DNA of 64,000 nt from Synergistaceae bacterium (GCA_017445405.1 JAFSUD010000065.1:28404-92403); one strand, 5' to 3'. Positions 3,296-35,920 are shown, counted from the first letter of the stretch. The notes: a model not told the origin generated them from the letters alone. Program-made: numbers and translations.

Positions 3296-3448
3296 CGCTC
3301 ACCTCCTTCATTTCAATGACAGAAATTATATTTCTATTTTAGAAAAAAATAATGCGTATAAATACTAAAATAAATCTAAATAATTTCCGAAAATGAAATT
3401 GAAAAGTATTTCCAATCTGGCATAATTACAAAAAGGAGAAGATAACAT
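3296..3448. promoter_or_regulatory. Divergent promoter/operator region (genetic switch)
   Basis: AT-rich. Palindrome AGAAATTATATTTCT (3321-3335) overlaps a leftward TATAAT. AATTTC-N7-GAAATT at 3382-3400. Rightward TTGAAA (3399-3404)-N16-CATAAT (3421-3426). Recurrent GAAAT/ATTTC half-sites. Confidence 0.55.
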
Positions 3449-3877: not shown

Positions 3878-3903
3878 GCATTACACGAAAGGAGACACTT
3901 CTA

Positions 3904-4446: not shown

Positions 4447-4473
4447 ATGATGTCATTCGGAGGCTACGCTAAC

Positions 4474-5163: not shown

Positions 5164-5187
5164 CCATTATGTTGTACATAAAGGACG

Positions 5188-9225: not shown

Positions 9226-10434
9226 ATGGATGTTATGTTCGAGAGCCTCGCTAAAATCTTTTACACCAATGGAAAATCTCATGCTCAAATCTACAAGGAA
9301 AGGTTTTACTCCCCATCGGCTGTGCACTTGCCTATAACTATCAGACAGTTCAACCATGATAGGGCTTTTCAGGCGTTCTTCTATTACAATCAAGACTTAT
9401 CTATAGCTCTGGAGAAAATATACCTCAGGTTCTCCGATTTCTTGAGCATCCTGCCTAAACTCGCACTCATCATTCAGCGTCAGTTCGCTTTAGCGTCTAT
9501 CGTTGATGAAGTTCATTCTACAAGCGATATTGAGGGCATACATAGCACGCATAGGGAGCTGAGGGATATTATTGACGGAGGCGGCAATAACCAGCACTTC
9601 TCCAGCATCATCAAGATGTACGACCTACTCTCTTCCGGCGACTATCCTCAATTCAGCACTTGCGAGGACGTTAGGAGGTTCTATGACGAGTTCGTTCATC
9701 AGGATGCTATTGCGTATGACTTCAATAACCGGCTAGATGGGAAGCTGTTTCGCAAGGAGGGCGTTGATGTCAAAAACCCTTCAGGCAAGATTATCCACAG
9801 GGGAGTTGAACCTGAAGGCAAAATCATTGCCGTCATGTCGGAGGCTCTGCACTTCTTGAACTCGGACGAATATCCCGCCCTTATCCGTATCGCCATCTTC
9901 CACTATCTCTTCGTCTACATTCATCCATTCTACGACGGCAACGGCAGAACAGCACGTTTTATCTCGTCTTGCTACCTTGCCCAGCATTTGCATCCGCTTG
10001 TCGCTCTCAGGCTCGCCGTTACCATAAAGAGGCACAAGGGAAGGTATTACTCTCTCCTAAAGGAGACTGACGCTGAAATCAACTGCGGGGATATTACTCC
10101 CTTCATTCTAGGCTTCTTGCAGTTTGTTGCCGATACCCTGCTGGAGATTAACAGCAAGCTCCAGCATAAACTTACCCAGCTCAAGCGCATGAAGCAAGCT
10201 CTCTTCTCTGTCCTGCCTCACGATGAGGACACCCAGAACATCGCTTGGGCTATCCTTCAGGCCTGCACTTTCTATGGCAGAGGAGCATCCATAGAGGAAC
10301 TCATTGCCGCATCCGGCAAGACCAGAAACACCGTCATGAAGAAATTGGCTACTATGCCTGTACGTACTCTCACAAACGTGAGAAAACACTTTTACAAAAT
10401 CGACTGGGCGGCTATGAGGTACTTAGCTCACTAG
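9226..10434 (+). CDS. Fic-family protein, class II (intramolecular inhibitory helix)
   Basis: Active-site motif HPFYDGNGRTAR. Upstream TSDIEG fits the inhibitory [ST]xxxE[GN] motif. The start (ATG 9226 versus TTG 9184) is uncertain. Confidence 0.9.
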   Translation: MDVMFESLAKIFYTNGKSHAQIYKERFYSPSAVHLPITIRQFNHDRAFQAFFYYNQDLSIALEKIYLRFSDFLSILPKLALIIQRQFALASIVDEVHSTSDIEGIHSTHRELRDIIDGGGNNQHFSSIIKMYDLLSSGDYPQFSTCEDVRRFYDEFVHQDAIAYDFNNRLDGKLFRKEGVDVKNPSGKIIHRGVEPEGKIIAVMSEALHFLNSDEYPALIRIAIFHYLFVYIHPFYDGNGRTARFISSCYLAQHLHPLVALRLAVTIKRHKGRYYSLLKETDAEINCGDITPFILGFLQFVADTLLEINSKLQHKLTQLKRMKQALFSVLPHDEDTQNIAWAILQACTFYGRGASIEELIAASGKTRNTVMKKLATMPVRTLTNVRKHFYKIDWAAMRYLAH

Positions 10435-13582: not shown

Positions 13583-14005
13583 CTAATTATAGCGACGGGC
13601 AGATACTTTGCGGTATATGCCGAGTTTGCTCATTAGAGCATCACGCAGAGTTTCCGAGAAGTTGATTTTCTCCCTGAGAGCGGCTCTGTTGAGCCATCTC
13701 GGAAGTGTAACAGTGCGTTTCTCAGACTTGCTATCCATCTCTTCGCGGTAAGCTGGGAGATAGATGCGTACAGGAACAGTAGCAGTATCCTCTTCATGAG
13801 GAATATCCTGAATGCGGGACGGCTCAGGCAAGGTTTCTACTTCAGCATCAGCGAGATAAAAGCCAAGAGTTTCCTGAGCATAGGCGTAAACATCGCAGTC
13901 TTTTCTGCACTGCCCCGTGCATCCCGGCAAATCGGGAAAGGTAACCGCGACTTCATCAGGAATGTCATACCAGAATAGAGCTGGATAAACGATAAAATCA
14001 TTCAT
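13583..14005 (-). CDS. hicB: HicB-family antitoxin (HicB fold + C-terminal RHH)
   Basis: YPALFWYDIPDEVAVTFPDLPGCTGQC is typical of a HicB N-terminus. The C-terminus RTVTLPRWLNRAALREKINFSETLRDAL is RHH-like. AAAGGAGAC RBS. Confidence 0.85.
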   Translation of the reverse strand: MNDFIVYPALFWYDIPDEVAVTFPDLPGCTGQCRKDCDVYAYAQETLGFYLADAEVETLPEPSRIQDIPHEEDTATVPVRIYLPAYREEMDSKSEKRTVTLPRWLNRAALREKINFSETLRDALMSKLGIYRKVSARRYN

Positions 14006-14165: not shown

Positions 14166-14498
14166 ATGGATAACGAGACAACGATAGAGCGAGATGACAA
14201 AGGCCGTTTCGTGAAAGGGCAGTCTGGCAATCCGTCCGGCCGCCCGAGAGTACCTGAAGAGGTACGGAACGCCATCAAGGCAGCGTGTCCCGAAGCAGTG
14301 CAGAGGCTGATAGGGTTCATGAGCCACGAGAACGCGAAGATAGCGATGATGGCAATCACGGAGATACTGGACAGGGGCTACGGGAAGGCGACGCAAATGC
14401 AGGATGTGCAGATAGACGTGAACGGAGCGGCAGGATTGCGTGAGGAGATACGCAGTCTATTGCTGGAGCGCGAGGCGGAACGTGGAACTGACAGCTGA
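14166..14498 (+). CDS. Small terminase candidate (DUF5681-like)
   Basis: GRFVKGQSGNPSGRPR is the DUF5681 signature often found just upstream of TerL. It overlaps the terminase large subunit start. Confidence 0.6.
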   Translation: MDNETTIERDDKGRFVKGQSGNPSGRPRVPEEVRNAIKAACPEAVQRLIGFMSHENAKIAMMAITEILDRGYGKATQMQDVQIDVNGAAGLREEIRSLLLEREAERGTDS

Positions 14499-15933
14499 GG
14501 AACTCCAAGAGACACTAGCCGCCGAAGAGCGCGCGATGCATTCACTAGTAGCGTTCCGAGAGACGTTCATCCCGTCGAAGGATGATGTACGCCCTGCGCC
14601 GTTTCATGAAGAGTGGAGCAAAATCCTCTTGGAGGGCAAGGAGAACTTTGCGATAGAGGCGTTCCGAGAGAGCGCGAAGACGCAGATAGTAATCCGAGCA
14701 AACCTTCTTCACGCGCTGACATACCCGCAGGAGCACCGCAGCTACCTAGTGATAATCTGCGCCACGCAGACGCAGGCGAGCAAGAAGCTGGTAGAGGTAT
14801 CGCGTGAGTACATGGCGAACGCTGCGATGAACGGCCTGATGGAGAGTGTTAGGGACAACTCCGGGCTAGCGTTAGAGGTGCATTACCGCAACGGAGCGAA
14901 AGTGAGGATAGAGGCATACGGTAAAGGAGCGGCAGTACGAGGTCTCTCGTGGGGAGCAAAACGACCCGACCTAGTGATAATCGATGACCCGCAAGATAGT
15001 GAGGACGCGCGTAGTGAGGCAGTAACGACGAGCGACTGGGACTGGTTTCTCTCAGACGTATATTTCTTGGGAAAGAACACGAGAATATTCCTAATCGGGA
15101 ACAATCTCGGAGAACGCTGCATAATAGAACGAGTAATCAAGTCAAGCGAGCTGCTGAACTTCACATCGAGGCGCATCCCGATACTGACGGAGGATGGCAA
15201 AAGCGCGTGGCCTTCGAAGTGGCCTCTGAGGGAGATAGAACGTAGCCGTGATAACGCCGCCCTACTAGGGAAGACGGACATCTGGTACAGGGAGAGGATG
15301 TGCGAGACAATCAGCCCCGACAGCCAGAAGTTCAAGCGACAGTATTTCAGGTACTACGAGAAAGCCCCCTCGCCGCGCGAGCTGAACATCTACACAGCGG
15401 TAGACCTAGCAATCAGCCAGAAAGCGAACGCCGACTGTTCAGCAATAGTAACAGTAGGGGTAAACAAGGAAGGGCACTGGTTCGTGCTAGATGTGGAGTA
15501 CGGGAGATATGACCCAAGCACGACAATGGACGCGATATTCAGTGCAGTGAAGAAGTGGCGGCCTTTGTGCGTAGGAGTAGAGGCAGTAGCCTATCAGGCA
15601 GCCCTGCAGCATTTCTTGGAGAAGGAGATGCCGAAACGCGGGGTATTCTTCCGCATCCAGCCGTTGAAGGCTGAGAAGAAGAAGGAGCTCAGGATAGACG
15701 CGATACAGCCGCGATTTGTGGTAGGGACGGTTTGGTTCAAGGCTCGTGCCTCGTGGCTGGACAAGATAGAGAGCGAGCTCTTGGCGTACCCGAACGGAGC
15801 GCATGATGACGTGATAGACGCGCTGGCATACATGGAACAGATGACAAATGAGCCGTTCGATAATGGATATGACAAAGATTATTACGGAGGGAGTGAAACA
15901 GATGAATGGAATCCGATAGCTGGGATGATGTAA
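14482..15933 (+). CDS. terL: Terminase large subunit
   Basis: ATPase motifs (AFRESAKTQ, Walker B LVIIDDPQDSED) and C-terminal nuclease motifs (YTAVDLAIS..., HDDVIDALAY). The start (GTG 14482) is uncertain. Confidence 0.85.
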   Translation: MELTAEELQETLAAEERAMHSLVAFRETFIPSKDDVRPAPFHEEWSKILLEGKENFAIEAFRESAKTQIVIRANLLHALTYPQEHRSYLVIICATQTQASKKLVEVSREYMANAAMNGLMESVRDNSGLALEVHYRNGAKVRIEAYGKGAAVRGLSWGAKRPDLVIIDDPQDSEDARSEAVTTSDWDWFLSDVYFLGKNTRIFLIGNNLGERCIIERVIKSSELLNFTSRRIPILTEDGKSAWPSKWPLREIERSRDNAALLGKTDIWYRERMCETISPDSQKFKRQYFRYYEKAPSPRELNIYTAVDLAISQKANADCSAIVTVGVNKEGHWFVLDVEYGRYDPSTTMDAIFSAVKKWRPLCVGVEAVAYQAALQHFLEKEMPKRGVFFRIQPLKAEKKKELRIDAIQPRFVVGTVWFKARASWLDKIESELLAYPNGAHDDVIDALAYMEQMTNEPFDNGYDKDYYGGSETDEWNPIAGMM

Positions 15934-17885
15934 GGATAGTCTCGGACAAAGAGACGGAGCAGGACAAGAAGGTAAAGAAGGCGGTGCTTGCGGACATCCA
16001 GAGAGCTAATGACTTTTTCACATCAAAGATAGAACCAGTGCTACGAGTTAGACACAAGATATATGAGGCAGACCGAGAGTACTACAAACAGCGTTTCAGG
16101 AACACGGCGGCGCAGAGCGACTTTGTGAGCTTTGACTTCTGGAGCATGGTGCAATGGGCAATTCCGAACGTGATGAACTCATTTTTCGGGAGTGATGACG
16201 CAGTAGTTATCGTAGGGCGCAGTGAAGAGGACGTGCCGCGCGCGGAGGTTCTGAAGTCGTTAATTAACTTCCAGCTGATGACGCAGAACAAGGGCTTCTT
16301 GGTGCTGTGGGACTGGTTCAGCGACGCATTCGAGTACAATCTCGGAGCAGTAAAAATTTGGTGGGAGAGAGTAGAGGACTGGCAGGACGAGCACCTGGAG
16401 TACGTAGACGCAATGACGCTGTTGCAGATGCAGATGAATGAATGGTGTCAGATAGAGTACGCGCTCGGGCCAGACTTGCTAGGAAACTATCAGATAGGCT
16501 ACCGAATAGGACGGCTGAAGAGCAACAAGCCTGTGATAGAGCCAGTGAGGGTAACAGACCTGCGCTGGTCTCCAGAGGCCAAGAGCCTGAAGGACGCGAA
16601 CTTTGTAGCACACCGACAGGCAGTAACAGCCGACCACCTTCGCAGACAGGCACAGCGCGAGGTGTATGACCCTGAAGCAGTAGAGAAGGCCATAGAGAAA
16701 GCAGGCAACGGAGGGATAATCTATAACTCCTTCGAGACAGAGCTGAACGACGAGCTGAATACGCGCCCCAATGAGGAAGATGATGCGCGCTCGCTGTATG
16801 AGCTGTATGAATGCTATGTGAAGGTAGACATCAATGGCGACGGAATGCTTGAAGACGCGATAGTCTCAGTGGTTGGGGACGAAATCCTGAGAGTGATGGA
16901 GAACCCGTACAACCGAGTACCGATATTCACGCTCTCGCCAGTGCGCGACCCGTTCAAGGTGCTTGCTGATGTATCTCTAGCGGAGATAGTAGGCGAAGTG
17001 CAGACAATCAAGACCGCGCTGATGCGCCAGCTGTTGGTGAACACGGTGAACATAAACAATCAGCGATGGTTCATCGACGGTAAGGGAGTAGACGTGAAGG
17101 ACATCCAGCAGGGTCGCCAGTTCATCAAGGTGAGCGGCAACCCGAGCGCGATAGTGTATCCGTTCCCCCAGCAGGGGATAGCCCCCTGGACTATGAACCT
17201 GTTTGAGTACCTCGAAGGAGCACTAGAGGAATGGACAGGACGTAGCCGATACAACCAGGGCTTGAGTAGCAAGACGCTGAACAAGACGGCGACGGGAATA
17301 TCGCTTCTCCAGCAGGCAAGTGAACAGCGAATAGACTACATAGTGAGGGTGTTCGCGGAGACGGGAGTTGGAGAGGTACTGCGTTTCTTGGTGGAGCTGA
17401 ACCAGAGGTATATAGACCAGCCGCAGGTGATACGACTGCAGAACACGATGCTAGAGGTAAGTCCCGATGACTTGAAAGGCGAGTTCGACATAGATGTGAA
17501 CACTGAGGCCGGAATAGGGAAGAGGAAGCAGACGATAGAGAACCTGCAGGTGTATCTTGCCAGCTTGGCGCAGACAGGTATCCAACTTGGAGCAATAACG
17601 CCCGCTGAATGGGCAATAGCGGCACGTAAGCTACTGCAGGAGAGCGGTATCCGAGATGCAAGCCAGTACGTGAAAGACCCCGAGCAGGTGAAGCAGGAGT
17701 TCTATACGGCGATGATGCAGCAGATGCAAGCTCAACAGGCACAGGAACAGGCAGCGCAAGAACAGGCGGCACTAGAAGGACTGCAGAACGCGGCGAAACA
17801 GCAGGCAGTGCTAGGGAAGTTGCAGGCAGCGGCTCAGCAGGGAGGCGGGTATGTTGCGCCGAACTTAGGAGGGCTGCAGTTATGA
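15906..17885 (+). CDS. Portal protein (659 aa)
   Basis: Position immediately after TerL with an overlapping start. Size and Q/A-rich C-terminal tail (QQMQAQQAQEQAAQEQAA) are typical of portal proteins. Confidence 0.8.
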   Translation: MESDSWDDVRIVSDKETEQDKKVKKAVLADIQRANDFFTSKIEPVLRVRHKIYEADREYYKQRFRNTAAQSDFVSFDFWSMVQWAIPNVMNSFFGSDDAVVIVGRSEEDVPRAEVLKSLINFQLMTQNKGFLVLWDWFSDAFEYNLGAVKIWWERVEDWQDEHLEYVDAMTLLQMQMNEWCQIEYALGPDLLGNYQIGYRIGRLKSNKPVIEPVRVTDLRWSPEAKSLKDANFVAHRQAVTADHLRRQAQREVYDPEAVEKAIEKAGNGGIIYNSFETELNDELNTRPNEEDDARSLYELYECYVKVDINGDGMLEDAIVSVVGDEILRVMENPYNRVPIFTLSPVRDPFKVLADVSLAEIVGEVQTIKTALMRQLLVNTVNINNQRWFIDGKGVDVKDIQQGRQFIKVSGNPSAIVYPFPQQGIAPWTMNLFEYLEGALEEWTGRSRYNQGLSSKTLNKTATGISLLQQASEQRIDYIVRVFAETGVGEVLRFLVELNQRYIDQPQVIRLQNTMLEVSPDDLKGEFDIDVNTEAGIGKRKQTIENLQVYLASLAQTGIQLGAITPAEWAIAARKLLQESGIRDASQYVKDPEQVKQEFYTAMMQQMQAQQAQEQAAQEQAALEGLQNAAKQQAVLGKLQAAAQQGGGYVAPNLGGLQL

Positions 17886-18106
17886 CAGATGTACTTCATG
17901 TGATAGCGGATGTACTGTTGCTGGTAATAGTAGTGTGGTACGACCGGCGAATAGAACAGCTAGAGGCTGATAGCGAGGAATATGAAGCCCATCTAAGGAC
18001 GTTAAGGCGGAGGCTGGACAGTCTTGCGGAACGAACGCCGCCTGTAGCTGGAGGAACGTCGGGCTGGCATGAATTGTGGTGTGCAGAGCCGACATGCGAG
18101 GCTTGA
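17882..18106 (+). CDS. Small N-terminally TM-anchored coiled-coil protein (74 aa)
   Basis: ATGA overlap with the portal stop. VIADVLLLVIVVWY hydrophobic helix, then a charged helix. Confidence 0.5.
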   Translation: MTDVLHVIADVLLLVIVVWYDRRIEQLEADSEEYEAHLRTLRRRLDSLAERTPPVAGGTSGWHELWCAEPTCEA

Positions 18107-18202
18107 TTAACAAGAGCGGGTAGTCTTAATTCAAAAATCGGCGAAAATTGAACTAAGACGAGCAAAAATACTCTCCATATTGCAATTTCAGGTAGATACC
18201 GA

Positions 18203-18230
18203 TTACAACATCATGGACTAAAGGTATACT
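18203..18230 (+). promoter_or_regulatory. Sigma70-like promoter of the Panacea moron
   Basis: TTACAA (18203-18208)-N16-TATACT (18225-18230), 25 nt upstream of the first Panacea gene. A 12-bp inverted repeat (18123-18134 / 18148-18159) lies just upstream. Confidence 0.35.
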
Positions 18231-18254
18231 TCAAAGAGAAAGGATGTGTGTAGT

Positions 18255-18689
18255 ATGCTGAGTATCTTTGATGTAGCCGCATATATTCTCGAACGTTGCG
18301 GGGCAATGTCAGCAATGAAGCTCCAAAAGTTGTGTTATTACTCTCAGGCATGGAGCTTGGTGTGGGATGATGAACCGCTGTTCCCCGAACCGATAGAAGC
18401 GTGGGTCAATGGACCTGTTATCCCAGTTCTTTACAGTAAGCATAAGGGTATCTTTAAGATTGAAGTCGGAGCAGTTGGAGGAAATCCCGATGCTTTAAGC
18501 GACCGCCAGAGAGAAACTGTTAATGCGGTATGCGATGCATATTCCCGCATGAATGCGCAGGAGTTAAGCGACCTTACGCACTCCGAGCAGCCATACATAA
18601 GAGCAAGGAGAGGGCTGGAACCTTTTGAGAGAGGGCATGAGGTTATCTCTTTGGCGGATATGTCAGAATACTATTCCAGTATCCAGTAA
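18255..18689 (+). CDS. Panacea/SocA (DUF4065) domain protein, copy 1
   Basis: FDVAAYILERCGAMSAMKLQKLCYYSQAWSLVWDDEPLFPEPIEAWVNGPV is the canonical DUF4065 N-terminal pattern. Confidence 0.85.
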   Translation: MLSIFDVAAYILERCGAMSAMKLQKLCYYSQAWSLVWDDEPLFPEPIEAWVNGPVIPVLYSKHKGIFKIEVGAVGGNPDALSDRQRETVNAVCDAYSRMNAQELSDLTHSEQPYIRARRGLEPFERGHEVISLADMSEYYSSIQ

Positions 18690-18799
18690 TGGGACGGGAC
18701 AAGGATATATGATTAAGGAATAATCATCGTAGTGAACGCTCAGTACGTAAGAGCGAAGTTGATTATTCTTCTCTCCCCGTATGCTGGCAGTTTTCCTTA

Positions 18800-19120
18800 A
18801 TGGATATGTCTGGTCCTTTTTCTTGTGCAGATATTACGCTCGACGAGTGGCGGCTTATCCTAGACAAGATGCGGCTGTGGGAGAAAATGACATGGCATGA
18901 AATAGCAGGCAGACGAGACCACGCTATCGAGGTTGATAATATCAGCCCTGAAGCGAAGAAAAGGTTAATCGAGCTTCAGCTTGATGATATTGACGAAGTG
19001 TTTTCTCTTCATATAGATGGCATTAAACGTTTGTTTGGCATAAGGGATAGACACATCTTCAAAGTGCTTTGGTGGGACAGAGAGCATAAAGTCTGCCCAT
19101 CGTATCTGAAGCATACGTGA
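18800..19120 (+). CDS. Unknown 106-aa protein between the two Panacea genes (candidate toxin/effector)
   Basis: ORF track. No domain recognised. C-terminal RLFGIRDRHIFKVLWWDREHKVCPS. No clear RBS at 18800, and an alternative start at 18887 (GGGAGAAA-ATG) is possible. Ends 14 nt before Panacea copy 2. Confidence 0.6.
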   Translation: MDMSGPFSCADITLDEWRLILDKMRLWEKMTWHEIAGRRDHAIEVDNISPEAKKRLIELQLDDIDEVFSLHIDGIKRLFGIRDRHIFKVLWWDREHKVCPSYLKHT

Positions 19121-19134
19121 GGACGGTGAATAGT

Positions 19135-19572
19135 ATGGCGACAGTATTCGACGTAGCGAAATATATTCTGAAACGTCAAGGAAGTATGTCATCATGGAAG
19201 TTGCAAAAGCTCTGTTACTATTCACAGGCATGGGCTTTGGCATGGACTGAACATGAGCTATTCCCAGAGGACTTCGAGGCATGGAGCAACGGGCCTGTTT
19301 GTTCTGTACTTTTCAGAGAGCACAAGGGGCTGTTTATGGTTAATGCCTCAGACATCACCAAAGGCACGCCAGAAAATCTTACCCACGATGAGCAAGATAC
19401 TGTAGACGTAGTATTGCGGGACTATGGCGGCATGTCTCCCTATGAGCTGCGCGAGCTTTCTCACAGTGAAGCTCCATACATAGAAGCCAGACATGGTTTG
19501 CCCGACGGAGCACGGTGCAGTTCAGTAATCTCGAAGGCATCAATGGGAGCTTTTTACCGAAGGAGGCCGTAA
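19135..19572 (+). CDS. Panacea/SocA (DUF4065) domain protein, copy 2, C-terminus replaced by IS insertion
   Basis: FDVAKYILKRQGSMSSWKLQKLCYYSQAWALAWTEHELFPEDFEAWSNGPV. After codon Tyr (19555-19557) the frame enters the IS left end and stops after RRRP. Confidence 0.8.
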   Translation: MATVFDVAKYILKRQGSMSSWKLQKLCYYSQAWALAWTEHELFPEDFEAWSNGPVCSVLFREHKGLFMVNASDITKGTPENLTHDEQDTVDVVLRDYGGMSPYELRELSHSEAPYIEARHGLPDGARCSSVISKASMGAFYRRRP

Positions 19573-19659
19573 AGCCCCTAGCTTCAGCTATGGGGATATA
19601 AGGCCTTTATCTTTTAATATTGCTTTGTATTATTTATACTATTCTTATATAATACATGC

Positions 19660-20064
19660 ATGCAATATAAATCTAATCGTAATATCGTTTATTCCTGCAA
19701 ATATCATGTCGTTTGGTGTCCTAAGTATCGCCGTAAAGTCCTCGTCGAGGCAGTTGAGACTAGGCTTAGAGAACTCATTATCTCCATGTGTCGTGAGTCC
19801 TCCGTTGAACTACTTAAACTTGAGATTATGCCTGACCATGTTCACTTGCTCGTTGATGTTGACCCCCAGCTTGGTATCCATACTTTGATAAAGAAGCTCA
19901 AAGGCAGGACATCAAGGCTGCTCAGGCAGGAGTTCCCATACCTTAAAACAAAGTTGCCTACGTTATGGACGAACAGCTACTTTGTCTCAACCGTAGGCGG
20001 AGCACCGCTAAAGATAGTGAAGCAGTACATAGAAAGCCAAAAGACAAGTCAACGGCAGAAATGA
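19660..20064 (+). CDS. tnpA: IS200/IS605 Y1 (HUH) transposase TnpA
   Basis: YHVVWCPKYRRKVL, HUH motif DHVHLLV, and catalytic Tyr context WTNSYFVSTVG. Confidence 0.92.
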   Translation: MQYKSNRNIVYSCKYHVVWCPKYRRKVLVEAVETRLRELIISMCRESSVELLKLEIMPDHVHLLVDVDPQLGIHTLIKKLKGRTSRLLRQEFPYLKTKLPTLWTNSYFVSTVGGAPLKIVKQYIESQKTSQRQK

Positions 20065-21221
20065 AAACGTTTCGCTTCAAGCTATATCACTCTGACCATA
20101 ACAGTGCATTGATGAGACAGATTAACATCGCTGGCCTCATATATAACCATTGCATAGCCCTGCAAAAGAGATACTACCGGCTGTTCGGCAAGTACATCAA
20201 ACCCTATGCTCTGATGAAGCACCTGACGAAGCTGAAGCGCACAAAACGTTTTGCGTATATGCGCCAGCTTGGGTCGCAGGCAGTGCAGGATGTGGCAGAG
20301 AGAATAGACCGTGCCTATAACCTGTTCTGGTCGAACCTGAAACGCAAGGTTAAGTGCTCGCCGCCAAAGTTCAAGGCTGTCCGCCGCTACAAATCGTTCA
20401 CGCTGAAGCAAGCGGGCTGGTCTCTTGATGAGGCTTGTGGACGTATTCGCTTGGGCAAAAGGTGGTACGGATACTTTCAGAGCCGTCGTATAGAGGGCAA
20501 AGTCAAAACGGTAACGGTGAAGCGTGATGCAGTAGGAAATATATACGTCTATCTGTGCTGTGATACTCAGTCTGTGCCGGTCGAGACACGAACGGGTAAG
20601 AGCGTCGGTTTCGACTTCGGGCTGAAACAGTTTCTCACAGCGAGTGATGGACAAGATATAACTTCACCCGATTTCTTCAAGCAGAACGTAAGAACAATAA
20701 GAACCAAATGCCGCGCACTCTCCCGCAAACAGAAAGGATCTCATAGCCGAGAACGTGCCCGCCTTGAACTGGCTCGTGCCTACCGCAGAATGGAGAACCA
20801 GCGCAAAGATTTTCACTTCAAGCTGGCCCGGAAACTCTGTGAGGAGTATGCGTGTATCTGCCTAGAGACGCTGAACATCAAGGGGATGGCGCGTTTGTTG
20901 GGACAAAAGATACACTCTCTAGGCTTCTCGGAGTTCGTGAAGATTCTTGAGTACGAGGCATCAAAGTTCGGGACGCAGATAGTCTTTGTGCCGCCGTTCT
21001 TCCCGTCCTCTCAGCTGTGCAGTGCCTGCGGGTATCAGAATCCTGATGTGAAGAATCTCAAAGTTCGTGAGTGGACTTGTCCGCAGTGCCATACGCACCA
21101 CGAACGGGACAGGAACGCGGCCAAGAATATATTGATGGCAGGGGCATCAGCCATTAGCGGAGACGCAGTAAGCCCGGAGCAATCCGGCAGTGTTGTAGAT
21201 GCTAGAAGCCCCCGCCTTTAG
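20061..21221 (+). CDS. tnpB: TnpB RNA-guided endonuclease (OrfB_IS605 + zinc ribbon)
   Basis: ATGA overlap with tnpA. RuvC triad contexts VGFDFG, ICLETLN and ERDRNAAKNI. Zinc ribbon CSACG...CPQC. Confidence 0.92.
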   Translation: MKTFRFKLYHSDHNSALMRQINIAGLIYNHCIALQKRYYRLFGKYIKPYALMKHLTKLKRTKRFAYMRQLGSQAVQDVAERIDRAYNLFWSNLKRKVKCSPPKFKAVRRYKSFTLKQAGWSLDEACGRIRLGKRWYGYFQSRRIEGKVKTVTVKRDAVGNIYVYLCCDTQSVPVETRTGKSVGFDFGLKQFLTASDGQDITSPDFFKQNVRTIRTKCRALSRKQKGSHSRERARLELARAYRRMENQRKDFHFKLARKLCEEYACICLETLNIKGMARLLGQKIHSLGFSEFVKILEYEASKFGTQIVFVPPFFPSSQLCSACGYQNPDVKNLKVREWTCPQCHTHHERDRNAAKNILMAGASAISGDAVSPEQSGSVVDARSPRL

Positions 21222-21239
21222 GCGTGGGGAGTATGTCAA

Positions 21240-21332
21240 TGGGACAGCATAGCCGAACCAGTAAGCATAGAGGAGCTAGAACGGGTACTAGAAGAGCTAG
21301 ATGCAGATATACCCGACATAGAACAAAGATAG
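21240..21332 (+). pseudogene. Displaced 3' end (30 codons) of Panacea copy 2
   Basis: Joining 19557 to 21240 keeps the frame: ...MGAFY|WDSIAEPVSIEELERVLEELDADIPDIEQR*. Confidence 0.65.
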
Positions 21333-21356
21333 CACTCCAGCAATGGGGTGCTTTTT
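21332..21356 (+). terminator. Rho-independent terminator closing the moron
   Basis: GCACTCC (21332-21338) pairs with GGGGTGC (21345-21351), followed by TTTTT. Confidence 0.6.
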
Positions 21357-21373
21357 CATGCACAGGAGGCAGA

Positions 21374-21454
21374 ATGGGAATAGCGGTACGTATCCCCGCA
21401 CTGGGGCGCGTAATAGAGTGGCTTCGCAAGAAGCTGAGGGAATTAGGTTACTAG
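21374..21454 (+). CDS. Possible 26-aa peptide MGIAVRIPALGRVIEWLRKKLRELGY
   Basis: AGGAGG 5 nt upstream of ATG 21374. It is the only plausible part of the 21224-21454 track ORF. Confidence 0.3.
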   Translation: MGIAVRIPALGRVIEWLRKKLRELGY

Positions 21455-21469
21455 AGAGGAGAGGTAGCT

Positions 21470-21769
21470 ATGGACACGAGAGAACTGAGGACGCTTGAAT
21501 ACAGTCCCGAACGTGAGCGCGAAGAACTAATGGCGCAGGCGGAGCAGGGACGGCGGTACAGGGTAGCGAACGATGTGCTCGACGAGATATTCGTCGCTCA
21601 GAGAGAACACGTAATCCGCCAGCTGGAGAGTGCCGACCTGCACTCGGACAATGACGCAATAGGGCTGGTGCAGTATCTTCGGGTACTGAAGATATTTGTA
21701 GACACGATAAGAAGCCGGATAGACAGCGGAGAAATCGCAGAAAAGGAGTTGATTAATGATGGCGACTAA
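21470..21769 (+). CDS. Hypothetical head-module protein (99 aa)
   Basis: ORF track. GAGAGGAGAGG RBS. Confidence 0.7.
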   Translation: MDTRELRTLEYSPEREREELMAQAEQGRRYRVANDVLDEIFVAQREHVIRQLESADLHSDNDAIGLVQYLRVLKIFVDTIRSRIDSGEIAEKELINDGD

Positions 21770-22884: not shown

Positions 22885-22894
22885 GGTGATAGCA

Positions 22895-23065
22895 ATGGAT
22901 GAGGAACTGAAACCCTGCCCGTTCTGCGGCAGTATCCCCGAAGTCTGTGAAGCGGAGAATGACGGTGAACTACTGAAGATGGTAGCGTGCCTCAATTGCG
23001 GAGTATCGACGTTTGCCAGCGAGGACGAAGCCAAAGTGATAGAAGCATGGAACAGACGGGTGTAG
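22895..23065 (+). CDS. Lar-family restriction-alleviation protein (56 aa)
   Basis: Below the ORF-track cutoff. KPCPFCGS...ACLNCG...EDEAKVIEAWNRR matches the Lar pattern (CPFCG, CxxC, A..WN.R). Confidence 0.7.
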   Translation: MDEELKPCPFCGSIPEVCEAENDGELLKMVACLNCGVSTFASEDEAKVIEAWNRRV

Positions 23066-28322: not shown

Positions 28323-28702
28323 TGCCAACGCCGTACAGTGAACTAGTCGAAGAGTTCTTCATGCGTTACGAGTACCCGAGCGTGGAGGAACTGACAGTAG
28401 GCTTCAGCGACATCGACCCTCCGCTGAAGAATGACAACGCCACGATGAACCATGAGGAGCTGGAGAACCTGATGGGCGGGGACGAAGACGGGCATTACCA
28501 CTTGACGCGGGACTTGTGGCTCAAAGTGATAGAGCTGCTAAACAGGAAGGACTACGACGGCGGGTATGCGTCAACAAGAGAGACAGAGTACTTGGAGAAC
28601 GAAGACGAGTGGTTTGATGGAGGGTACGCCACGACAACAGACGAGGAGTACCTAGAGAGTGAAGACAACTGGCGGGACGGAGGCGAGGCGGACAATGATT
28701 GA
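28322..28702 (+). CDS. Short adaptor-motif protein (126 aa)
   Basis: LTVGFSDIDPP plus NHEELENLMGGDEDGHYHLT (motif family 1). Confidence 0.65.
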   Translation: MPTPYSELVEEFFMRYEYPSVEELTVGFSDIDPPLKNDNATMNHEELENLMGGDEDGHYHLTRDLWLKVIELLNRKDYDGGYASTRETEYLENEDEWFDGGYATTTDEEYLESEDNWRDGGEADND

Positions 28703-28844
28703 GCGCGGGATAGCCGACAGGTTCTGCATATGCTGGTGGGACGGAGACGGCGAAGACTGGGTGCAACAGCTGGCTAGTCTCATCGGCTGGCCTGTAGTAA
28801 TAGAAACAGATAACATAGAAGTATGGGATGCGGGAGGAGCTTAG
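28695..28844 (+). CDS. Possible small protein (49 aa)
   Basis: Internal ATG of track ORF 28659-28844, overlapping the upstream stop by 8 nt. Weak support. Confidence 0.3.
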   Translation: MIERGIADRFCICWWDGDGEDWVQQLASLIGWPVVIETDNIEVWDAGGA

Positions 28845-28848
28845 AGAC

Positions 28849-29643
28849 ATGCCAACATACATCAAGATAAAGATACGTAGGGACAGCACAGAGAACTGGG
28901 AGAGCGTGAACCCCGTGCTGGACATGGGAGAACTTGGCGCGGATATGACCAAGCATGGCCTGAAGGTGGGCAACGGGTTATCCAACTGGACAGAGCTGCC
29001 GTTCTGCAGTCCCGAGATAGTGAATGACCTAGTAACGGGCGGAGCTACTTCAGCTCTCAGCGCAGAGATGGGTGTGGAGCTGAAACAGTTAGTGGATAGC
29101 AAGCCTGATGCAACGACAGTCAATACTCTGATTCAGAGTAGCAAAGTAACAGTAGAAGACCAGAACTGGAGCAGCACCAGTACGACAAATGCATTGAGTG
29201 CAAACAGCGGGCGTGTGTTGAAGAACCTATTAAACGGCAAAGCAGACCAGTCAGCATTGAACAGCTTGCAGACGCAGGTGAATAACATTATTACGTCTGG
29301 AGGGACAACCGTAGTAGACAGCCTGACTAGCACAAGTCCGACAAGTGCTCTGAGCGCAAATCAGGGACGGGTGTTGAAGGACTTAGTGGATGCCGTCAGT
29401 AACCAAGTAACGAACCTCAACAACCAAGTGAACGGCTTGGGAATGTTCGGGATGGGGTATACGATAAACAGCTGGAACGCATACGACAAGCCGACGAAAA
29501 TAACCTTTGAGGATGGGGTAACGGCAACATTGACATGGACGGGACAGTTCCTTCAGAGGATAACGGCGAGTACGGGCGAGGTAATGACGCTGAACTATGA
29601 CGGGAACGGCAGGATAACCGGCAGGACAATAACGAGGAGCTGA
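28849..29643 (+). CDS. Tail fibre protein with Mtd-N-like N-terminus (264 aa)
   Basis: GGGAGGAG RBS. IKIRRDSTENW...LDMGELGADMTKHGLKVGNGLSNWTELP (motif family 2), then GGATSALSAEMGVELKQLV and repeated SALSANxGRVLK units. Confidence 0.75.
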   Translation: MPTYIKIKIRRDSTENWESVNPVLDMGELGADMTKHGLKVGNGLSNWTELPFCSPEIVNDLVTGGATSALSAEMGVELKQLVDSKPDATTVNTLIQSSKVTVEDQNWSSTSTTNALSANSGRVLKNLLNGKADQSALNSLQTQVNNIITSGGTTVVDSLTSTSPTSALSANQGRVLKDLVDAVSNQVTNLNNQVNGLGMFGMGYTINSWNAYDKPTKITFEDGVTATLTWTGQFLQRITASTGEVMTLNYDGNGRITGRTITRS

Positions 29644-29650
29644 TGGGCAG

Positions 29651-30379
29651 ATGGCGGATGTTATCTTTAAGGTGCGGGGGAAGACGGCGGAGGAGTGGGA
29701 GGCATTCCCCTTCGCCCCCGTAACCAACGAAATAACGTTAGACAAGACGAGCGGGCGCATCAAGATAGGGGACGGTGTGAGCGCGTGGAAAGACCTCCCG
29801 TTCGTGAAGCCGGAAGTTATAGATGACCTAACGACTGGCGGGAGCTATGACGCACTGAGTGCGGAACAGGGCAAGAGGCTGAAGCTGTTAGTGGACAAGA
29901 AGGCTGAGCAGACTGCGCTTAATACACTGGTGCAAACAGTCAATAACAACTACTCCACGCTCGATAATCGCATAACGAATGTTCAGAACAGCCTTACCAC
30001 ATTAATTAACAACAAACCCAGCACGACCGCCACAATCTCCATAGGAAAAGTAACGACACTTGCTGCGGGTAAAAGAGCGACAGTAACGAACAGCGGAACA
30101 GATACCAATGTAGTTCTTGACTTCGGCATCCCGCGCGGAGCAATGGGAGCAACTGGATCAACGGGTGATAGAGGACCGCAGGGAGTAAAGGGTGATAAAG
30201 GCGATAAAGGAGACAGCGTAACCGTCCTGAACAGCTGGAGCACCAGCACAACAGCGGCTTTGAGTGCGGCGAAAGGTAAGGAACTGAATGACAAGTTGTC
30301 AGCATATTCTACGGAGAACTGGACATTCACGCTGACTGGCGGAAGTACGGTAACAAAGAAAGTAGTGTTGAGTTCATGA
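29651..30379 (+). CDS. Tail fibre protein with Mtd-N-like N-terminus and collagen-like triplets
   Basis: FKVRGKTAEEW...IKIGDGVSAWKDLP. G-X-Y run GAMGATGSTGDRGPQGVKGDKGDKGDS. Confidence 0.8.
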   Translation: MADVIFKVRGKTAEEWEAFPFAPVTNEITLDKTSGRIKIGDGVSAWKDLPFVKPEVIDDLTTGGSYDALSAEQGKRLKLLVDKKAEQTALNTLVQTVNNNYSTLDNRITNVQNSLTTLINNKPSTTATISIGKVTTLAAGKRATVTNSGTDTNVVLDFGIPRGAMGATGSTGDRGPQGVKGDKGDKGDSVTVLNSWSTSTTAALSAAKGKELNDKLSAYSTENWTFTLTGGSTVTKKVVLSS

Positions 30380-31170
30380 CTGTAGCTTTTGCAAATGTTA
30401 CTGCTGTTAGGATACCGCAGGGAGAAGTTGTGAAGATAGCGGAGACTTCCGGCGGGCGTGTGCTTTGGCAGAAGCAAACTGCAGAAACAGGCTATCCGCG
30501 TTTCTTTATGCTCGCAGAAACTACTTTAGGCAAGTGGTCAACAGATTTCCGTAAGTATAATGCTCCGAGTTACACTTCGTATGACCCTCCGTCCGGCATC
30601 ATAAAGACACGGAGCTTAGGTATAAATTCGGTGCTCTTAACACCAACAGGAGCTATCCAGACAACTACAGTGCTATCAACGGGCAACAAATTTACAGCAT
30701 GTTATGTTACCGGCTCATCAGATGAAACAAATATCCCGACAACAGCCAGGAAGCTGACGGATGCAAGATGGGGAGTTACTAAACTTCGGTTAAGGGCATG
30801 TACTCAAGGACGAGCGTATGTCGGTCAGGGGCTTGATATGAGCAGCAGTGTTGGTATAGATTTGCCTACCAGCCAGACACCGATAAAATTCTCAGGGACG
30901 AGCGGGGCTTCAATAAGCATAACGAGCATAACAGCACCTGCTTCATATAGCAGTATATACGAAAGTTATTCAGGGGACAGCCGTTACGTGAACAAAACGA
31001 CAGCACCTTATTTGCTAGGAGAGTTCGTTTTGGGATATACCTCAGCAAGTTTAGAAACTCTTGCAGGTGGAATGTCCTCAACATATAGCGGTTACGCGAG
31101 CCAATCTATATTCTATGGTTTCCCAGACTACAGCCCAACTATAACATTTTTCTTCGTAATCCAGAGATAA
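30376..31170 (+). CDS. Hypothetical fibre-associated protein (264 aa)
   Basis: ORF track. ATGA overlap with the upstream gene. Visibly lower GC than its neighbours. Confidence 0.6.
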   Translation: MTVAFANVTAVRIPQGEVVKIAETSGGRVLWQKQTAETGYPRFFMLAETTLGKWSTDFRKYNAPSYTSYDPPSGIIKTRSLGINSVLLTPTGAIQTTTVLSTGNKFTACYVTGSSDETNIPTTARKLTDARWGVTKLRLRACTQGRAYVGQGLDMSSSVGIDLPTSQTPIKFSGTSGASISITSITAPASYSSIYESYSGDSRYVNKTTAPYLLGEFVLGYTSASLETLAGGMSSTYSGYASQSIFYGFPDYSPTITFFFVIQR

Positions 31171-31191
31171 TCAAAGGAGATGTAAACAACA

Positions 31192-31647
31192 ATGTACTAT
31201 GTAAATTACGATGAAGACACAGGAGAAATTTTAGGGATATACCCATCAAGCGAGAGCTACGATGATGTTCCTTATCCGAAGATAACCATAACAGACGAAG
31301 AATACGAGAGGCTCGGCAGCGGAGAATGGACAGTCAGAGATAACGCCCTCCAGCTTGTCTCCGAAGAGCCCACCCCAAGCGCAGGGAGCGTCGAGGTGCT
31401 GCAAACCGAGTATGCGGAGAAGTTCGCACGTTTGAGAAACTCCTATACTGGAGCAGAAATCATGGGAGACAGAACCAACACGGCGGACATTCAGAGGGAC
31501 TACAGACTGCTAATAGACGACTTCAAGGCAGCTTTAGCCGCACTAGATGACGGCCAGCCCTACGAGGGAGGAGCGCACGAACACTGCGAGATTTGCGGTG
31601 CAAGACTGAATGCTGGCGAATGCCTACGCTGCCACTGGAGGCTGTAA
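31192..31647 (+). CDS. Tail-fibre assembly/chaperone-like protein (151 aa)
   Basis: MYYVNYDEDTGEILGIY... N-terminus is typical of Tfa-like proteins. C-terminal CxxC...CxxC. Tentative. Confidence 0.5.
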   Translation: MYYVNYDEDTGEILGIYPSSESYDDVPYPKITITDEEYERLGSGEWTVRDNALQLVSEEPTPSAGSVEVLQTEYAEKFARLRNSYTGAEIMGDRTNTADIQRDYRLLIDDFKAALAALDDGQPYEGGAHEHCEICGARLNAGECLRCHWRL

Positions 31648-31653
31648 GATGAC

Positions 31654-31959
31654 ATGCTGGAACGTTTTGAGGAGTTCTACAAGCACTACGAGCGTCCCGA
31701 AATTGAGGAGCTGACGGTAGGCTTCAGCGGAATTGACCCGCCGGAGAAGACTGGCACAAATGACCACGAAGAGCTAGAGAACCTTCTAGGTGGCGACGCT
31801 ATGGGGCACTATCACCTGACAGGCTCTCAGCTAGAGAAGCTCGCCGCAATGTTCAGAGAGAGTTACCCGCCATACATAACTACCAGACAAATAACAGTAA
31901 CAGCCGACGAACCAATGACCCCGTATACGATAACGGGGGAGAACACGACACTAAGTTAG
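31654..31959 (+). CDS. Short adaptor-motif protein (101 aa)
   Basis: LTVGFSGIDPP plus DHEELENLLGGDAMGHYHLT. Ends MTPYTITGENTTLS, then TAG. Confidence 0.65.
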   Translation: MLERFEEFYKHYERPEIEELTVGFSGIDPPEKTGTNDHEELENLLGGDAMGHYHLTGSQLEKLAAMFRESYPPYITTRQITVTADEPMTPYTITGENTTLS

Positions 31960-31971
31960 AGGAGCGATAAG

Positions 31972-32268
31972 ATGCCCAAGAATATAACGAGCGTAACATG
32001 GAGCGCAACAGGACTGCCGAGCGCGCTGACCATCAACAGTGCCACAGGAGTAATAAGCGGCACACCGAACGTCCAGCCTGGAGACTATACCGCTTCAGTA
32101 ACGGTAACGACGAATTACGGGACGGACACGAAGCCTGTAACAGTCAGAGTAGGTATACCTGCAGCTTGGTTGCCGCAGATTGACCCTAATCAGATAGTGA
32201 ACACCATAGCAGGCGATGTAATGACCCCCTACACCGTAACCGGCCAGAATGTAACGCTTGGAGGCTAG
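31972..32268 (+). CDS. He_PIG-like (putative Ig) domain protein (98 aa)
   Basis: WSATGLPSALTINSATGVISGTPNVQPGDYTASVTVTTNYG. Same frame as 31654-31959, separated by one TAG plus 4 sense codons. Confidence 0.65.
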   Translation: MPKNITSVTWSATGLPSALTINSATGVISGTPNVQPGDYTASVTVTTNYGTDTKPVTVRVGIPAAWLPQIDPNQIVNTIAGDVMTPYTVTGQNVTLGG

Positions 32269-32270
32269 AG

Positions 32271-33485
32271 ATGCCGACCAAGCAGATAACCAGCGTAGTA
32301 TGGAGCTGCGGAGCACTGCCCGCCGGTGTTAGCTTCAACACAGCGACGGGGACATTCAGCGGTACTCCAGAGGTTGAGGGCGAGTATATAGTGCCTGTAA
32401 CAGTAACGACCAACTACGGGACAGACATGAAGAATGTAACTCTGAGCGTAGCAGAGCCTGAGGTAGAGGAAGACGGAGAATACGGACCGGTGTACGCTAT
32501 AGGGACGAAAGCCAAAACATGGAGCGGGAATGCGGAGGCTGATGCTGACGGTTTCAGGAAGCTCAACATGCCTGACGCTTGCAGACTTGTGAAATTGTGT
32601 ACTGGTTTTGCGGCGAAAACAGACAGCCTCCAGTGGTACGTTTGCGGCACCACTATACATGGTTCTTCAAGCGCGCATCCTAAACCATATGGTGTTACTG
32701 GCCTTTCACCTTCTGTGCCTGTGCAATTTCCAGTTGAAGATGTTGTTGATATGTCATCAGGTTGGTATCGCGTTACAAGTTCAGTTTCCGGCTCTTACTA
32801 CTTTGCTTATCTCACTTCAGACCACGTATCTCATGTAGTTCTGCTAATGACCGCAAATTCTGCTATTACTAGTGTCGGTAATATAAAGAAATTGAGTAGC
32901 GGGTATGGTGCTGGTGTAATGACAATCGACAACACTGGAGCAACACGCTATGAGAATGCAACAGTGCGTGGGCAGCTAGCAGTGGGTGTATCACCTTCTC
33001 AGGTAAAAAAACTCTTAGCTACTGGTATGTACTCTAAACCTCGAATGCCTACATACATTACAACGTCCGGCTATCTTTATAAAGGGGCAGAACGCGTGGA
33101 TTTTGGCGGTGGGAAGATAAGAAACATTTGGGGATACCCGCATGGTGAAAAACAGCATCTGTTCGCTGTTACCGAAGATAATCAGCTCTATGCGATGGGA
33201 GAAAACACGTATCACAGTCTCGGACTTGATGGAACAGAAACAAGGACAGAGCTTGAATTAGTCGGAGAATGGGACGTTAAGACTATAGCTCAGGGAAGTA
33301 CAATGGACACGTTTTTGCTTACTAACGACGGTAAACTGTACCATTCAGGTGCGGCTATGTCAGTATACGACATATCGAAAATTGTTAGTACGCATGAGAG
33401 TTTTACACACATATACCCAGACAAAAGATTTATTGATATAGCAATGTATTCCAGCACTACATTAGTAGCTATACTGAAGGAGTGA
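32271..33485 (+). CDS. He_PIG-like domain + propeller-like C-terminal domain protein (404 aa)
   Basis: WSCGALPAGVSFNTATGTFSGTPEVEGEYIVPVTVTTNYG. The C-terminus has RCC1-like strings (NQLYAMGENTYHSLG, DGKLYHSGA). The C-terminal part has lower GC. Confidence 0.7.
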   Translation: MPTKQITSVVWSCGALPAGVSFNTATGTFSGTPEVEGEYIVPVTVTTNYGTDMKNVTLSVAEPEVEEDGEYGPVYAIGTKAKTWSGNAEADADGFRKLNMPDACRLVKLCTGFAAKTDSLQWYVCGTTIHGSSSAHPKPYGVTGLSPSVPVQFPVEDVVDMSSGWYRVTSSVSGSYYFAYLTSDHVSHVVLLMTANSAITSVGNIKKLSSGYGAGVMTIDNTGATRYENATVRGQLAVGVSPSQVKKLLATGMYSKPRMPTYITTSGYLYKGAERVDFGGGKIRNIWGYPHGEKQHLFAVTEDNQLYAMGENTYHSLGLDGTETRTELELVGEWDVKTIAQGSTMDTFLLTNDGKLYHSGAAMSVYDISKIVSTHESFTHIYPDKRFIDIAMYSSTTLVAILKE

Positions 33486-33489
33486 GACG

Positions 33490-33831
33490 ATGAGATACTT
33501 AGAATATGAGACAGCGACAGGACGGATAATCAGCGAGCTGACCAGCAGGGACAAACCCACCCCTTCCGAAGGGTTCTCTCTGCTTGAGATACCTGAAGAC
33601 GCAGATATAGACACCACGCTGTACGCGGTGAAGAACGGAGTACTGGTGAAGTGCTACGAAACAAACGAGGAGCGTCTGGAGCGAGAGAGGCTGAAGCGCG
33701 AGCATCTGGAGAAAGTGCGAATGAGGATGAAGGCGATGATGTACGAGGTGGGAATAGCACTCCTTGAAGAGGACGACAATGCAATAAAGCAACTCAGACA
33801 GGAATACCGAGAACTGAAGGCGTATCTGTGA
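33490..33831 (+). CDS. Tail-fibre assembly/chaperone-like protein (113 aa)
   Basis: MRYLEYETATGRIISEL... resembles the 31192 gene N-terminus. Tentative. Confidence 0.5.
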   Translation: MRYLEYETATGRIISELTSRDKPTPSEGFSLLEIPEDADIDTTLYAVKNGVLVKCYETNEERLERERLKREHLEKVRMRMKAMMYEVGIALLEEDDNAIKQLRQEYRELKAYL

Positions 33832-35906: not shown

Positions 35907-35920
35907 GGACGTGATTTAGA

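Follow-up and report, generated by a model that had tools for sequence, protein, structure and literature searches.

Genetic Organization of the Portal/Scaffold Junction

The 64,000-nucleotide stretch of Synergistaceae DNA analyzed here (GCA_017445405.1 JAFSUD010000065.1:28404-92403; hereafter, the window) appears to carry an SU10-like prophage of a ruminant-gut bacterium, and this work deals with a cassette of 3,154 bp, 1,682 bp of which are an insertion sequence (IS), that separates its portal gene from its head-assembly genes. The cassette comprises a promoter-like site, a first Panacea (DUF4065) antitoxin gene (PanA1), a toxin (PanT) gene interrupted by an in-frame stop codon, a second Panacea antitoxin gene (PanA2) whose 3′ end is occupied by the IS, and an intrinsic-terminator-like hairpin (table 1). 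Gene calls combine an open reading frame (ORF) map with Pfam, PHROG, and NCBIfam scans of the window, and the loci compared with it are designated by L numbers. An initial annotation of the same DNA had described a self-contained, promoter-to-terminator unit in which two Panacea genes surround an unknown 106-aa ORF, and had proposed that it could form an active toxin–antitoxin (TA) or abortive-infection module.

Table 1. Features of the cassette, of its surroundings, and of the cassette of the sister phage L009 (window positions unless stated otherwise).
Feature	Position	Strand	Remarks
Promoter-like site	18202..18230	+	ATTACA-N17-TATACT, upstream of PanA1; scan match 9/12; use inferred
PanA1, standalone Panacea/DUF4065 antitoxin, 144 aa	18255..18689	+	PF13274 E=1.7e-18
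PanT toxin gene, 143 codons	18689..19120	+	RelE/YafQ-like (BECR) family (putative); interrupted by in-frame stop
Premature in-frame TGA	18710..18712	+	Codon 8 of toxin gene
106-aa ORF of the initial annotation	18800..19120	+	Only translatable remainder of toxin gene
PanA2, Panacea antitoxin of second lineage, 145 aa	19135..19572	+	PF13274 E=8e-16
TTAC target tetranucleotide	19554..19557	+	Read from sequence; in PanA2 codons 140-141
IS608-like IS200/IS605 element, 1,682 bp	19558..21239	+	TnpA and TnpB matches; ends read from sequence
Left-end subterminal imperfect hairpin	19575..19595	+	CCCCTAGC-TTCA-GCTATGGGG, AAAG before; read from sequence
tnpA, Y1 HUH transposase, 134 aa	19660..20064	+	PF01797 E=1e-44; NF033573 E=1.5e-46
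tnpB, RNA-guided endonuclease family, 385 aa	20064..21221	+	OrfB_IS605 and Cas12f1-like TNB domain
Right-end imperfect hairpin plus 10 nt ending TCAA	21209..21239	+	Right cleavage site; read from sequence
Original sequence 3′ of insertion point	21240..21330	+	In frame with PanA2, 30 codons (WDSIAEPVSIEELERVLEELDADIPDIEQR, then a stop)
Intrinsic-terminator-like hairpin and T-run	21331..21357	+	Closes cassette; conserved after last cassette gene of L009
Large terminase	14440-15933		ORF map and scans
SU10-type portal (SU10_portal)	15906-17885		ORF map and scans
74-aa ORF	17882-18106		Overlaps portal stop codon
26-codon ORF	21374-21454		MGIAVRIPALGRVIEWLRKKLRELGY; GGAGG ribosome-binding site
Head-assembly (scaffold/capsid) genes	from 21470		ORF map and scans
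399-aa Fic-domain protein	9235-10434		Early region
HicB-like antitoxin domain protein	13583-14005	-	PF15919 E=6e-7
Lar-type restriction-alleviation protein	22886-23065		PF14354 E=1e-15
Mtd_N and phage fiber repeats	28828-29643 and 29651-30379		Profile matches
Ig/RCC1-like repeats	32271-33485
C-type lectin domain	33828-35906
L009 cassette	2829-5493 of ENA ERZ1667814 scaffold_24742		PanA-Fic (404 aa)-PanA-BECR toxin (156 aa)

The placement of the cassette as a moron between portal and scaffold, already proposed in the initial annotation, is borne out by related phages. Indeed, six related viral contigs (L096, L100–L103, and L112), whose portals are 65–73% identical to that of the window, have the portal directly followed by a homolog of p99, a 99-aa protein, with no insert, which argues for a moron-type insertion at the portal/scaffold junction. 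As in other phage morons and in the variable cargo of late operons, the cassette has a promoter-like motif and a terminator of its own, both of predicted activity, a lower G+C content (46% vs. 50% for the window), and no counterpart at the same position in relatives. Different cargo is found at this site in a sister phage (L009; portal ~90% identical), which carries PanA-Fic-PanA-toxin followed by the same terminator, with the module types in the opposite order to the window and a promoter-like motif before each PanA. L009 clearly illustrates an exchange of toxins (Fic for BECR) behind PanAs that are almost the same, and L085 and L088 likewise carry PanAT modules in tandem. The cargo of the window is of the TA type and partly decayed.

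The terminator called in the initial annotation is present as a hairpin with a T-run at 21331–21352. The promoter call stood only in part: a match of 9/12 is by itself of a grade common in shuffled sequences (nine such sites in 3.8 kb vs. 5.0±2.3 in shuffles), but a similar motif, GATTACA-N17-TATACT or TATATT, is found at the same distance upstream of the PanA genes of both L009 modules and, in weaker form, in L079 and L077, and this shared motif lends some comparative support to the weak call. The site may serve to express the cassette; PanA2 itself lacks such a motif.

Two Antitoxin Lineages and an Interrupted Toxin Gene

Both genes that the initial annotation had assigned to Panacea do belong to this family, with matches above the Pfam gathering score, and they are 49% identical to each other. 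PanA1 is 66–74% identical to the PanAs that precede close homologs of the window toxin; PanA2 reaches only 47–50% identity with these, but 89% with PanA-a, which comes first in the L009 cassette, and 67–79% with P0036, P0053, and P0064. Judged from these identities, PanA1 groups with the antitoxins of the window toxin's lineage, and PanA2 is of a second lineage that is here without its toxin gene. In other loci, PanA2-type antitoxins each precede a toxin of their own, namely a divergent member of the same toxin family in L085, L088, and L091 (profile E=1e-22 to 1e-36) and Fic in L009, so that the earlier picture of two PanAs framing one toxin does not hold. Downstream of PanA2 in the window are only the IS, 91 bases, and the terminator. 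The ribosome-binding region of PanA2 (GAGGACGGTGAATAGTATG) is that of L009 PanA-a, which, together with the lack of a promoter-like motif of its own, suggests that recombination placed PanA2 directly behind the first toxin gene.

The 106-aa ORF of the initial annotation exists and ends 14 nt before PanA2, but it is only the tail of a gene of 143 codons with a TGA at codon 8. The ATG at 18689, which overlaps the stop codon of PanA1 (TAATG), is in frame with 18800, and the gene reads MGRDKDI, then TGA, then on in frame through a CWQF motif to the ATG at 18800. Intact homologs of the toxin are 141–157 aa long with a conserved N-terminal CWQF motif, and the closest full-length locus, L001, in which the PanA and toxin pair is ~82% identical to that of the window in DNA, has CGG (Arg) at the position of the TGA. 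A frameshift after an ATG at 18709 was also considered for the toxin N-terminus and rejected, as the alignment with L001 shows an in-frame TGA and a start at ATG 18689. Seven contigs assembled independently share the same TGA, with no mismatch over 20 kb.

From the TGA to 18800 there is no ATG, GTG, or TTG, and the bases before 18800 show no visible Shine-Dalgarno sequence. The neighboring genes end normally with TGA, and no tRNA, hence no suppressor tRNA, is encoded in the window. In an AlphaFold2 (AF2) model built with 23 sequences (predicted local distance difference test [pLDDT] 86, predicted template modeling score [pTM] 0.77), CWQ forms a confident strand, beta1, at residues 24–26 (toxin residues are numbered along the modeled 135-aa segment), and the 106-aa ORF starts at Met30 and is therefore devoid of strand beta1 and of the invariant Trp. 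With these elements missing from the fragment and no ribosome-binding site visible, the first module is most likely toxin-dead.

An IS608-Like Element at the 3′ End of PanA2

The promoter-to-terminator unit of three genes is refuted by an IS200/IS605 element that the initial annotation had overlooked. Its assignment to the IS608-like group follows from a Y1 TnpA (NF033573, 157.7 bits for a cutoff of 55) with an accessory TnpB (NF040570 guided_TnpB, 262.7 bits for a cutoff of 100), subterminal hairpins, TTAC and TCAA ends, and no target duplication. On the left, the layout is TTAC, CGAAGGAGGCCGTAAAG, and the left hairpin; on the right, the right hairpin, AGTATGTCAA, and the end at 21239. IS608 is known to insert on the 3′ side of TTAC with no DNA gained or lost, TCAA lying 10 nt 3′ of the right hairpin (PMC3201880). 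Like IS608 of Helicobacter pylori, the element of the window has co-oriented, overlapping tnpA and tnpB genes, sits 3′ of TTAC, has neither inverted repeats nor a target duplication, bears an AAAG guide adjoining the CCCCTAGC...GCTATGGGG left hairpin, and ends on the right with GGGGAGTATGTCAA, the TCAA being 10 nt past the hairpin; it differs in having 17 nt instead of 19 nt between TTAC and the left hairpin, and in the sequence of the right hairpin.

The ends of the element are delimited by comparison. The left-end motif AAAGCCCCTAGC is conserved in related left ends, which, where found, are preceded by TTAC (TTAT in one case), and Helicobacter and Alicyclobacillus phage records contain copies that match the segment 19566–19604 at 97% identity. 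The right terminal 19-mer, GGCGTGGGGAGTATGTCAA, occurs exactly in 66 reference-genome loci, many of them of rumen Synergistaceae, Fretibacterium, and Selenomonadaceae, and the sequences of these loci diverge from the first base after TCAA. These varying flanks past TCAA and the TTAC before the left ends set the element at 19558–21239. The nearest full copies in reference genomes (Fretibacterium, Synergistaceae) are only ~70% identical; the exact right-end pattern was absent from viral contigs, and the window holds no second copy. An empty site, that is, the phage without the IS, was not found in viral contigs or in Joint Genome Institute (JGI) metagenomes, and every contig of the window phage that reaches the site bears the IS. 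An Rfam scan of 17800–21600 returned nothing, hence no annotated omega-RNA or other RNA.

The insertion point lies within PanA2, the native part of which spans 19135–19557, the last four codons (RRRP) and the stop being the left end of the IS. Removing the IS in silico joins ...GAFY in frame to 30 further codons and yields a PanA2 of 171 aa. This acidic tail of 30 aa is absent from all 120 of the best PanA2 homologs listed, which stop at ~144 aa with ...FYGSL, and this speaks against the reconstructed 171-aa protein as the native form. An IS of 1,683 bp would give PanA2 a family-like end (FYGTA), but the right end stops at TCAA in the 66 loci. It is possible that a 1-nt difference at 21240 accounts for the PanA2 end.

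By analogy with characterized TnpB systems (PMC8612924), a tnpB-associated omega-RNA would have as its guide the sequence that immediately follows the right end (TGGGACAGCATAGCC..., window 21240–21260), with TTAC as the adjacent motif. If this reading is true, TnpB would cut an IS-free copy of the same PanA2 site. As a separate observation, gene-less elements of ~150–410 bp with an IS608-like left end (or a remnant of it) and the right end were found at five loci of rumen Synergistales and Selenomonadaceae (L017, L032, L061, L068, and L073), and look like non-autonomous derivatives of this IS family, of the kind of miniature inverted-repeat or palindrome-associated transposable elements (MITE/PATE).

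A Large Putative Toxin Family Paired with Panacea Antitoxins

All contexts examined have a Panacea gene directly before the toxin gene, usually overlapping it: beside restriction-modification genes (L001), on elements with primase and giant polyvalent proteins (L077–L081), on another phage (L082–L084), on phage-like elements and in a chromosomal sugar operon (L085–L093), on the sister phage (L009), and on Rhizobium and P. aeruginosa plasmids (L094, L095). This conserved adjacency marks the middle gene of the cassette as the putative toxin partner of a PanA antitoxin, in keeping with the earlier suggestion of a new PanT. It is, on the other hand, not an isolated novelty: a profile search of 1.84 billion cluster representatives retrieved 2,533 of them at E<=1e-3 and 1,695 at E<=1e-10, mostly of 140–160 aa, and the family comes to ~2,500 clusters at 50% identity. 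Collections of isolate phages and plasmids contain hardly any such toxin, with one weak phage match and two plasmid matches.

All 23 aligned members match the NCBIfam model NF046006 (MAG6450_fam), and the window protein does so at E=1e-5; its 25.9–26.7 bits, for a curated cutoff of 40, make it a relative of this family and not a member by the NCBI threshold. In the literature, MAG6450 appeared only as a locus tag in a table of Mycoplasma agalactiae mutants, with no function given. Remote homology further links the toxin to NsnC, an effector of the Menshen system: the C-terminus of the PADLOC NsnC profile is matched by 22 of the 23 members (best 1e-10) and by the window protein at E=2e-7, over profile positions 184–280 of 284, that is, over the whole toxin core. 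This C-terminus is a PB-BECR1 RNase domain with an H-R-H triad (PMC12065111). On the side of structure, 19 of the 20 top Foldseek matches of the AF2 model in the PDB are HigB, YoeB/ParE, YafQ, or RelE proteins, all weak matches (best E=0.26, target-normalized template modeling [TM] scores 0.5–0.58). The residues His70, Arg106, Arg111, and His125 are invariant in the family, and His70, Arg106/Arg111, and His125 are candidate catalytic residues. A C-terminal His-Thr is also conserved, which we take to resemble the C-terminal catalytic residues of YafQ and HigB. The toxin is thus best described as a RelE/YafQ-like putative RNase toxin, for which the sequence link is firm and the fold link weak, and RNase activity would be expected of its intact form.

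Compared with the ribosome-dependent mRNA interferases RelE, YafQ, HigB, and YoeB (RelE/ParE, BECR), which are the top structural neighbors of its model, the window toxin keeps the candidate catalytic residues, but it is ~50 residues longer, with a basic N-terminal extension, has no significant sequence or Foldseek match to them, and is partnered by Panacea and not by RelB, DinJ, HigA, or YefM. With respect to Menshen, which consists of NsnA (ParB-DUF262), NsnB (ABC ATPase and DUF3696), and an NsnC with an N-terminal inactive-PIN domain (PMC12065111), the likeness resides in the homology of the toxin core to NsnC by hidden Markov model (HMM) and in the same kind of H-R-H conserved set. The window toxin differs in being a stand-alone protein of 143 aa encoded with PanA, without the inactive-PIN domain and with no NsnA or NsnB nearby; it is thus not a Menshen component, as only the C-terminal effector domain matches and the neighbors are PanA and phage genes.

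The pairing has the predicted attributes of published PanAT pairs, which are validated TA systems (Kurata et al. 2022, PMC8832971) and in which, for antitoxins made of Panacea alone, the domain neutralizes the toxin directly (Ernits et al. 2023, PMC10440598). Indeed, the antitoxin is a standalone Panacea protein of ~144 aa encoded immediately upstream of, and overlapping, a small partner gene, the pairing is conserved over many genomes and mobile elements including phages, and a swap of partners is visible (Fic for BECR in L009). It differs from these pairs in that no validated one uses the family of the window toxin, the validated RNase toxins being MazF-like (PMC8832971), in that the window toxin is nonsense-mutated, and in that the second PanA is without a partner. 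RelE-like PanTs are nonetheless of a known kind, since entries of Dataset S1 of Kurata et al. (PMC8832971) list PanT clusters with HigB/YoeB/RelE-like HHpred matches; compared by motifs and plasmid accessions with what the text of that supplement gives for the 88 T clusters, the toxin had no match.

Neighboring and Distant Genes of the Window

The 74-aa ORF downstream of the portal had been put forward as a transmembrane protein and a second, weaker toxin candidate for PanA1. It gave no family match in the profile scans and, being located upstream of the promoter-like site and also present in L009, where a PanA of the other type follows it, it is rather a gene of the phage backbone than one of the cassette; nothing supports a toxin. 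Between the cassette terminator and the gene for the 99-aa protein lies a 26-codon ORF, which may be a real small gene, given that a similar peptide (..WRVIERLLRKLRE..) is found at the same place in L009.

The early region of the window also encodes a Fic-domain protein; neither a Panacea gene nor any other obvious antitoxin gene adjoins it. Beyond the Fic motif, this protein bears no relation to the Fic of the L009 cassette, with only 35% identity over 55 aa, and it was accordingly rejected as the partner that PanA2 lacks. Just upstream of the terminase genes, the window encodes a HicB-like antitoxin domain protein, and between the scaffold and major capsid genes a Lar-type restriction-alleviation protein, also present in L009; the latter may be another small anti-defense gene within the head module. 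Further downstream, a coding motif of ~58 nt (HEELxxLLGGDxxGHYHLT, Mtd_N-type) recurs at least 10 times over 28340–41375 and is often preceded by a common GIDPP leader. It is situated in or close to the 5′ portion of an extended series of tail-fiber-like genes, and this region looks like an array of alternative receptor-binding proteins.

Discussion

Taken together, these features are probably best explained by a moron that holds the remains of two tandem PanA–PanT modules, both without a working toxin and with intact antitoxins, into which an IS608-like element later inserted. Under this scenario, the moron would have settled at a variable site of the prophage, and its first module would have consisted of PanA1 and a translationally coupled toxin of 143 codons. 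In intact relatives, as published PanAT work suggests, the standalone Panacea protein would bind and neutralize the toxin, and the freed toxin would cut RNA and arrest growth. The toxin of the first module would then have been knocked out by the nonsense mutation, so that at most a fragment of 106 aa would be made from it in the window, and that of the second module would have been lost by recombination or never brought in, leaving PanA2 alone. Finally, the IS608-like element, presumably from the mobilome of the host, would have landed on the TTAC at the end of PanA2 and supplied its last four residues and stop codon. The two antitoxins are probably still expressed; that PanA neutralizes toxins of this family and that toxicity is lost here are what the published pairs and the interrupted gene would lead one to expect.

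Several observations weigh against this scenario. No remnant of a toxin linked to PanA2 was found, and its loss is deduced from relatives. The seven contigs that share the TGA represent one clone, which means that the stop is real but need not be old or selected. Downstream of the TGA, the reading frame is undamaged and retains every invariant residue, and the mutation could be recent, or a product could still be made by read-through of the TGA or by restart at 18800. As for the toxin itself, it has no match in Pfam, including the RelE, YafQ, and HigB models, none in the PDB by sequence-profile search, and nothing useful in a viral fold library, and no Foldseek match reaches statistical significance; its RelE-like assignment is accordingly carried by one HMM link and a fold assignment from the literature.

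The preserved ORF would also fit a working PanAT or abortive-infection module, such as the initial annotation had in mind, in which the 106-aa protein or a product of TGA read-through would be kept in check by PanA1, PanA2, or both until a trigger such as superinfection. The retained promoter-like site and terminator would suit such a module, for which the validated PanAT pairs (PMC8832971) offer a precedent, and some representatives of the family are only 105–126 aa long and start near the same position. These short representatives may, however, be fragments from contig ends, and the 106-aa product would be without a confidently modeled core strand and the invariant Trp. Its translation is difficult to account for as well, with no start codon from the TGA to 18800, no Shine-Dalgarno sequence before it, a TGA that is the normal stop of neighboring genes, and no suppressor tRNA in the window. 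Given the premature stop, we consider an active module unlikely here.

That both antitoxin genes are intact when both toxin functions are missing could alternatively reflect a retention of the PanAs for counter-defense or anti-addiction against related BECR toxins of the host or of competing elements, the phage having discarded its own. This is made conceivable, on purely circumstantial grounds, by intact PanA–toxin modules of both lineages in the same metagenomes (ERZ28653813 and ERZ28019070; L079, L085, L087, and L090), by the homology between the toxin family and the NsnC effector domain, and by the report of Kurata et al. (PMC8832971) that two substitutions changed PanA specificity. Yet neutral decay would equally be expected to leave only antitoxins, a toxin being the harmless part to lose first, and an IS in the 3′ end of PanA2 argues against strong selection on this gene. 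The PanAs of the intact modules found share, moreover, only 66–74% identity with PanA1 and 67–79% with PanA2, and no Menshen genes are present in the window. On balance, we find this explanation rather improbable. Its more specific version, in which, the toxins being discarded, two diverged and expressed Panacea antitoxins would neutralize BECR-type effectors, from PanTs of the same family to even the Menshen NsnC effector domain, is a slim prospect; if true, PanA would be a phage-encoded inhibitor of a defense system.

Lastly, a single unit of PanA, novel toxin, and PanA, bounded by the promoter at 18203 and the terminator at 21356 and with a middle gene that both PanAs would serve, is highly improbable. 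Both signals do exist, PanA2 starts 14 nt after the toxin stop and lacks a promoter motif of its own, and a PanA-toxin-(51 aa)-PanA order is found in L085 and L086. However, 1,682 bp of the unit are an IS with two genes of its own, which already refutes its extent; close toxin homologs in five other contexts have a PanA upstream only, PanA2-type antitoxins elsewhere precede their own toxins, and in L009 the order of the two module types is reversed and a separate promoter-like motif accompanies each.

With two tandem modules that have probably lost their toxins, the instance found in the window is a decayed one, and its value would lie in the correction of its annotation and in offering a natural toxin-off, antitoxin-on variant, not in a new system. 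At the scale of the phages, the portal/scaffold junction of rumen SU10-like phages appears as a swap site for tandem PanAT modules, with BECR or Fic toxins in either order. At the scale of the toxin, a large unnamed family of ~145-aa proteins (~2,500 clusters), for which Pfam has no model, is tied both to Panacea antitoxins and to the NsnC effector domain of Menshen, and this link gives the family a candidate function, that of a RelE-like RNase toxin neutralized by PanA.

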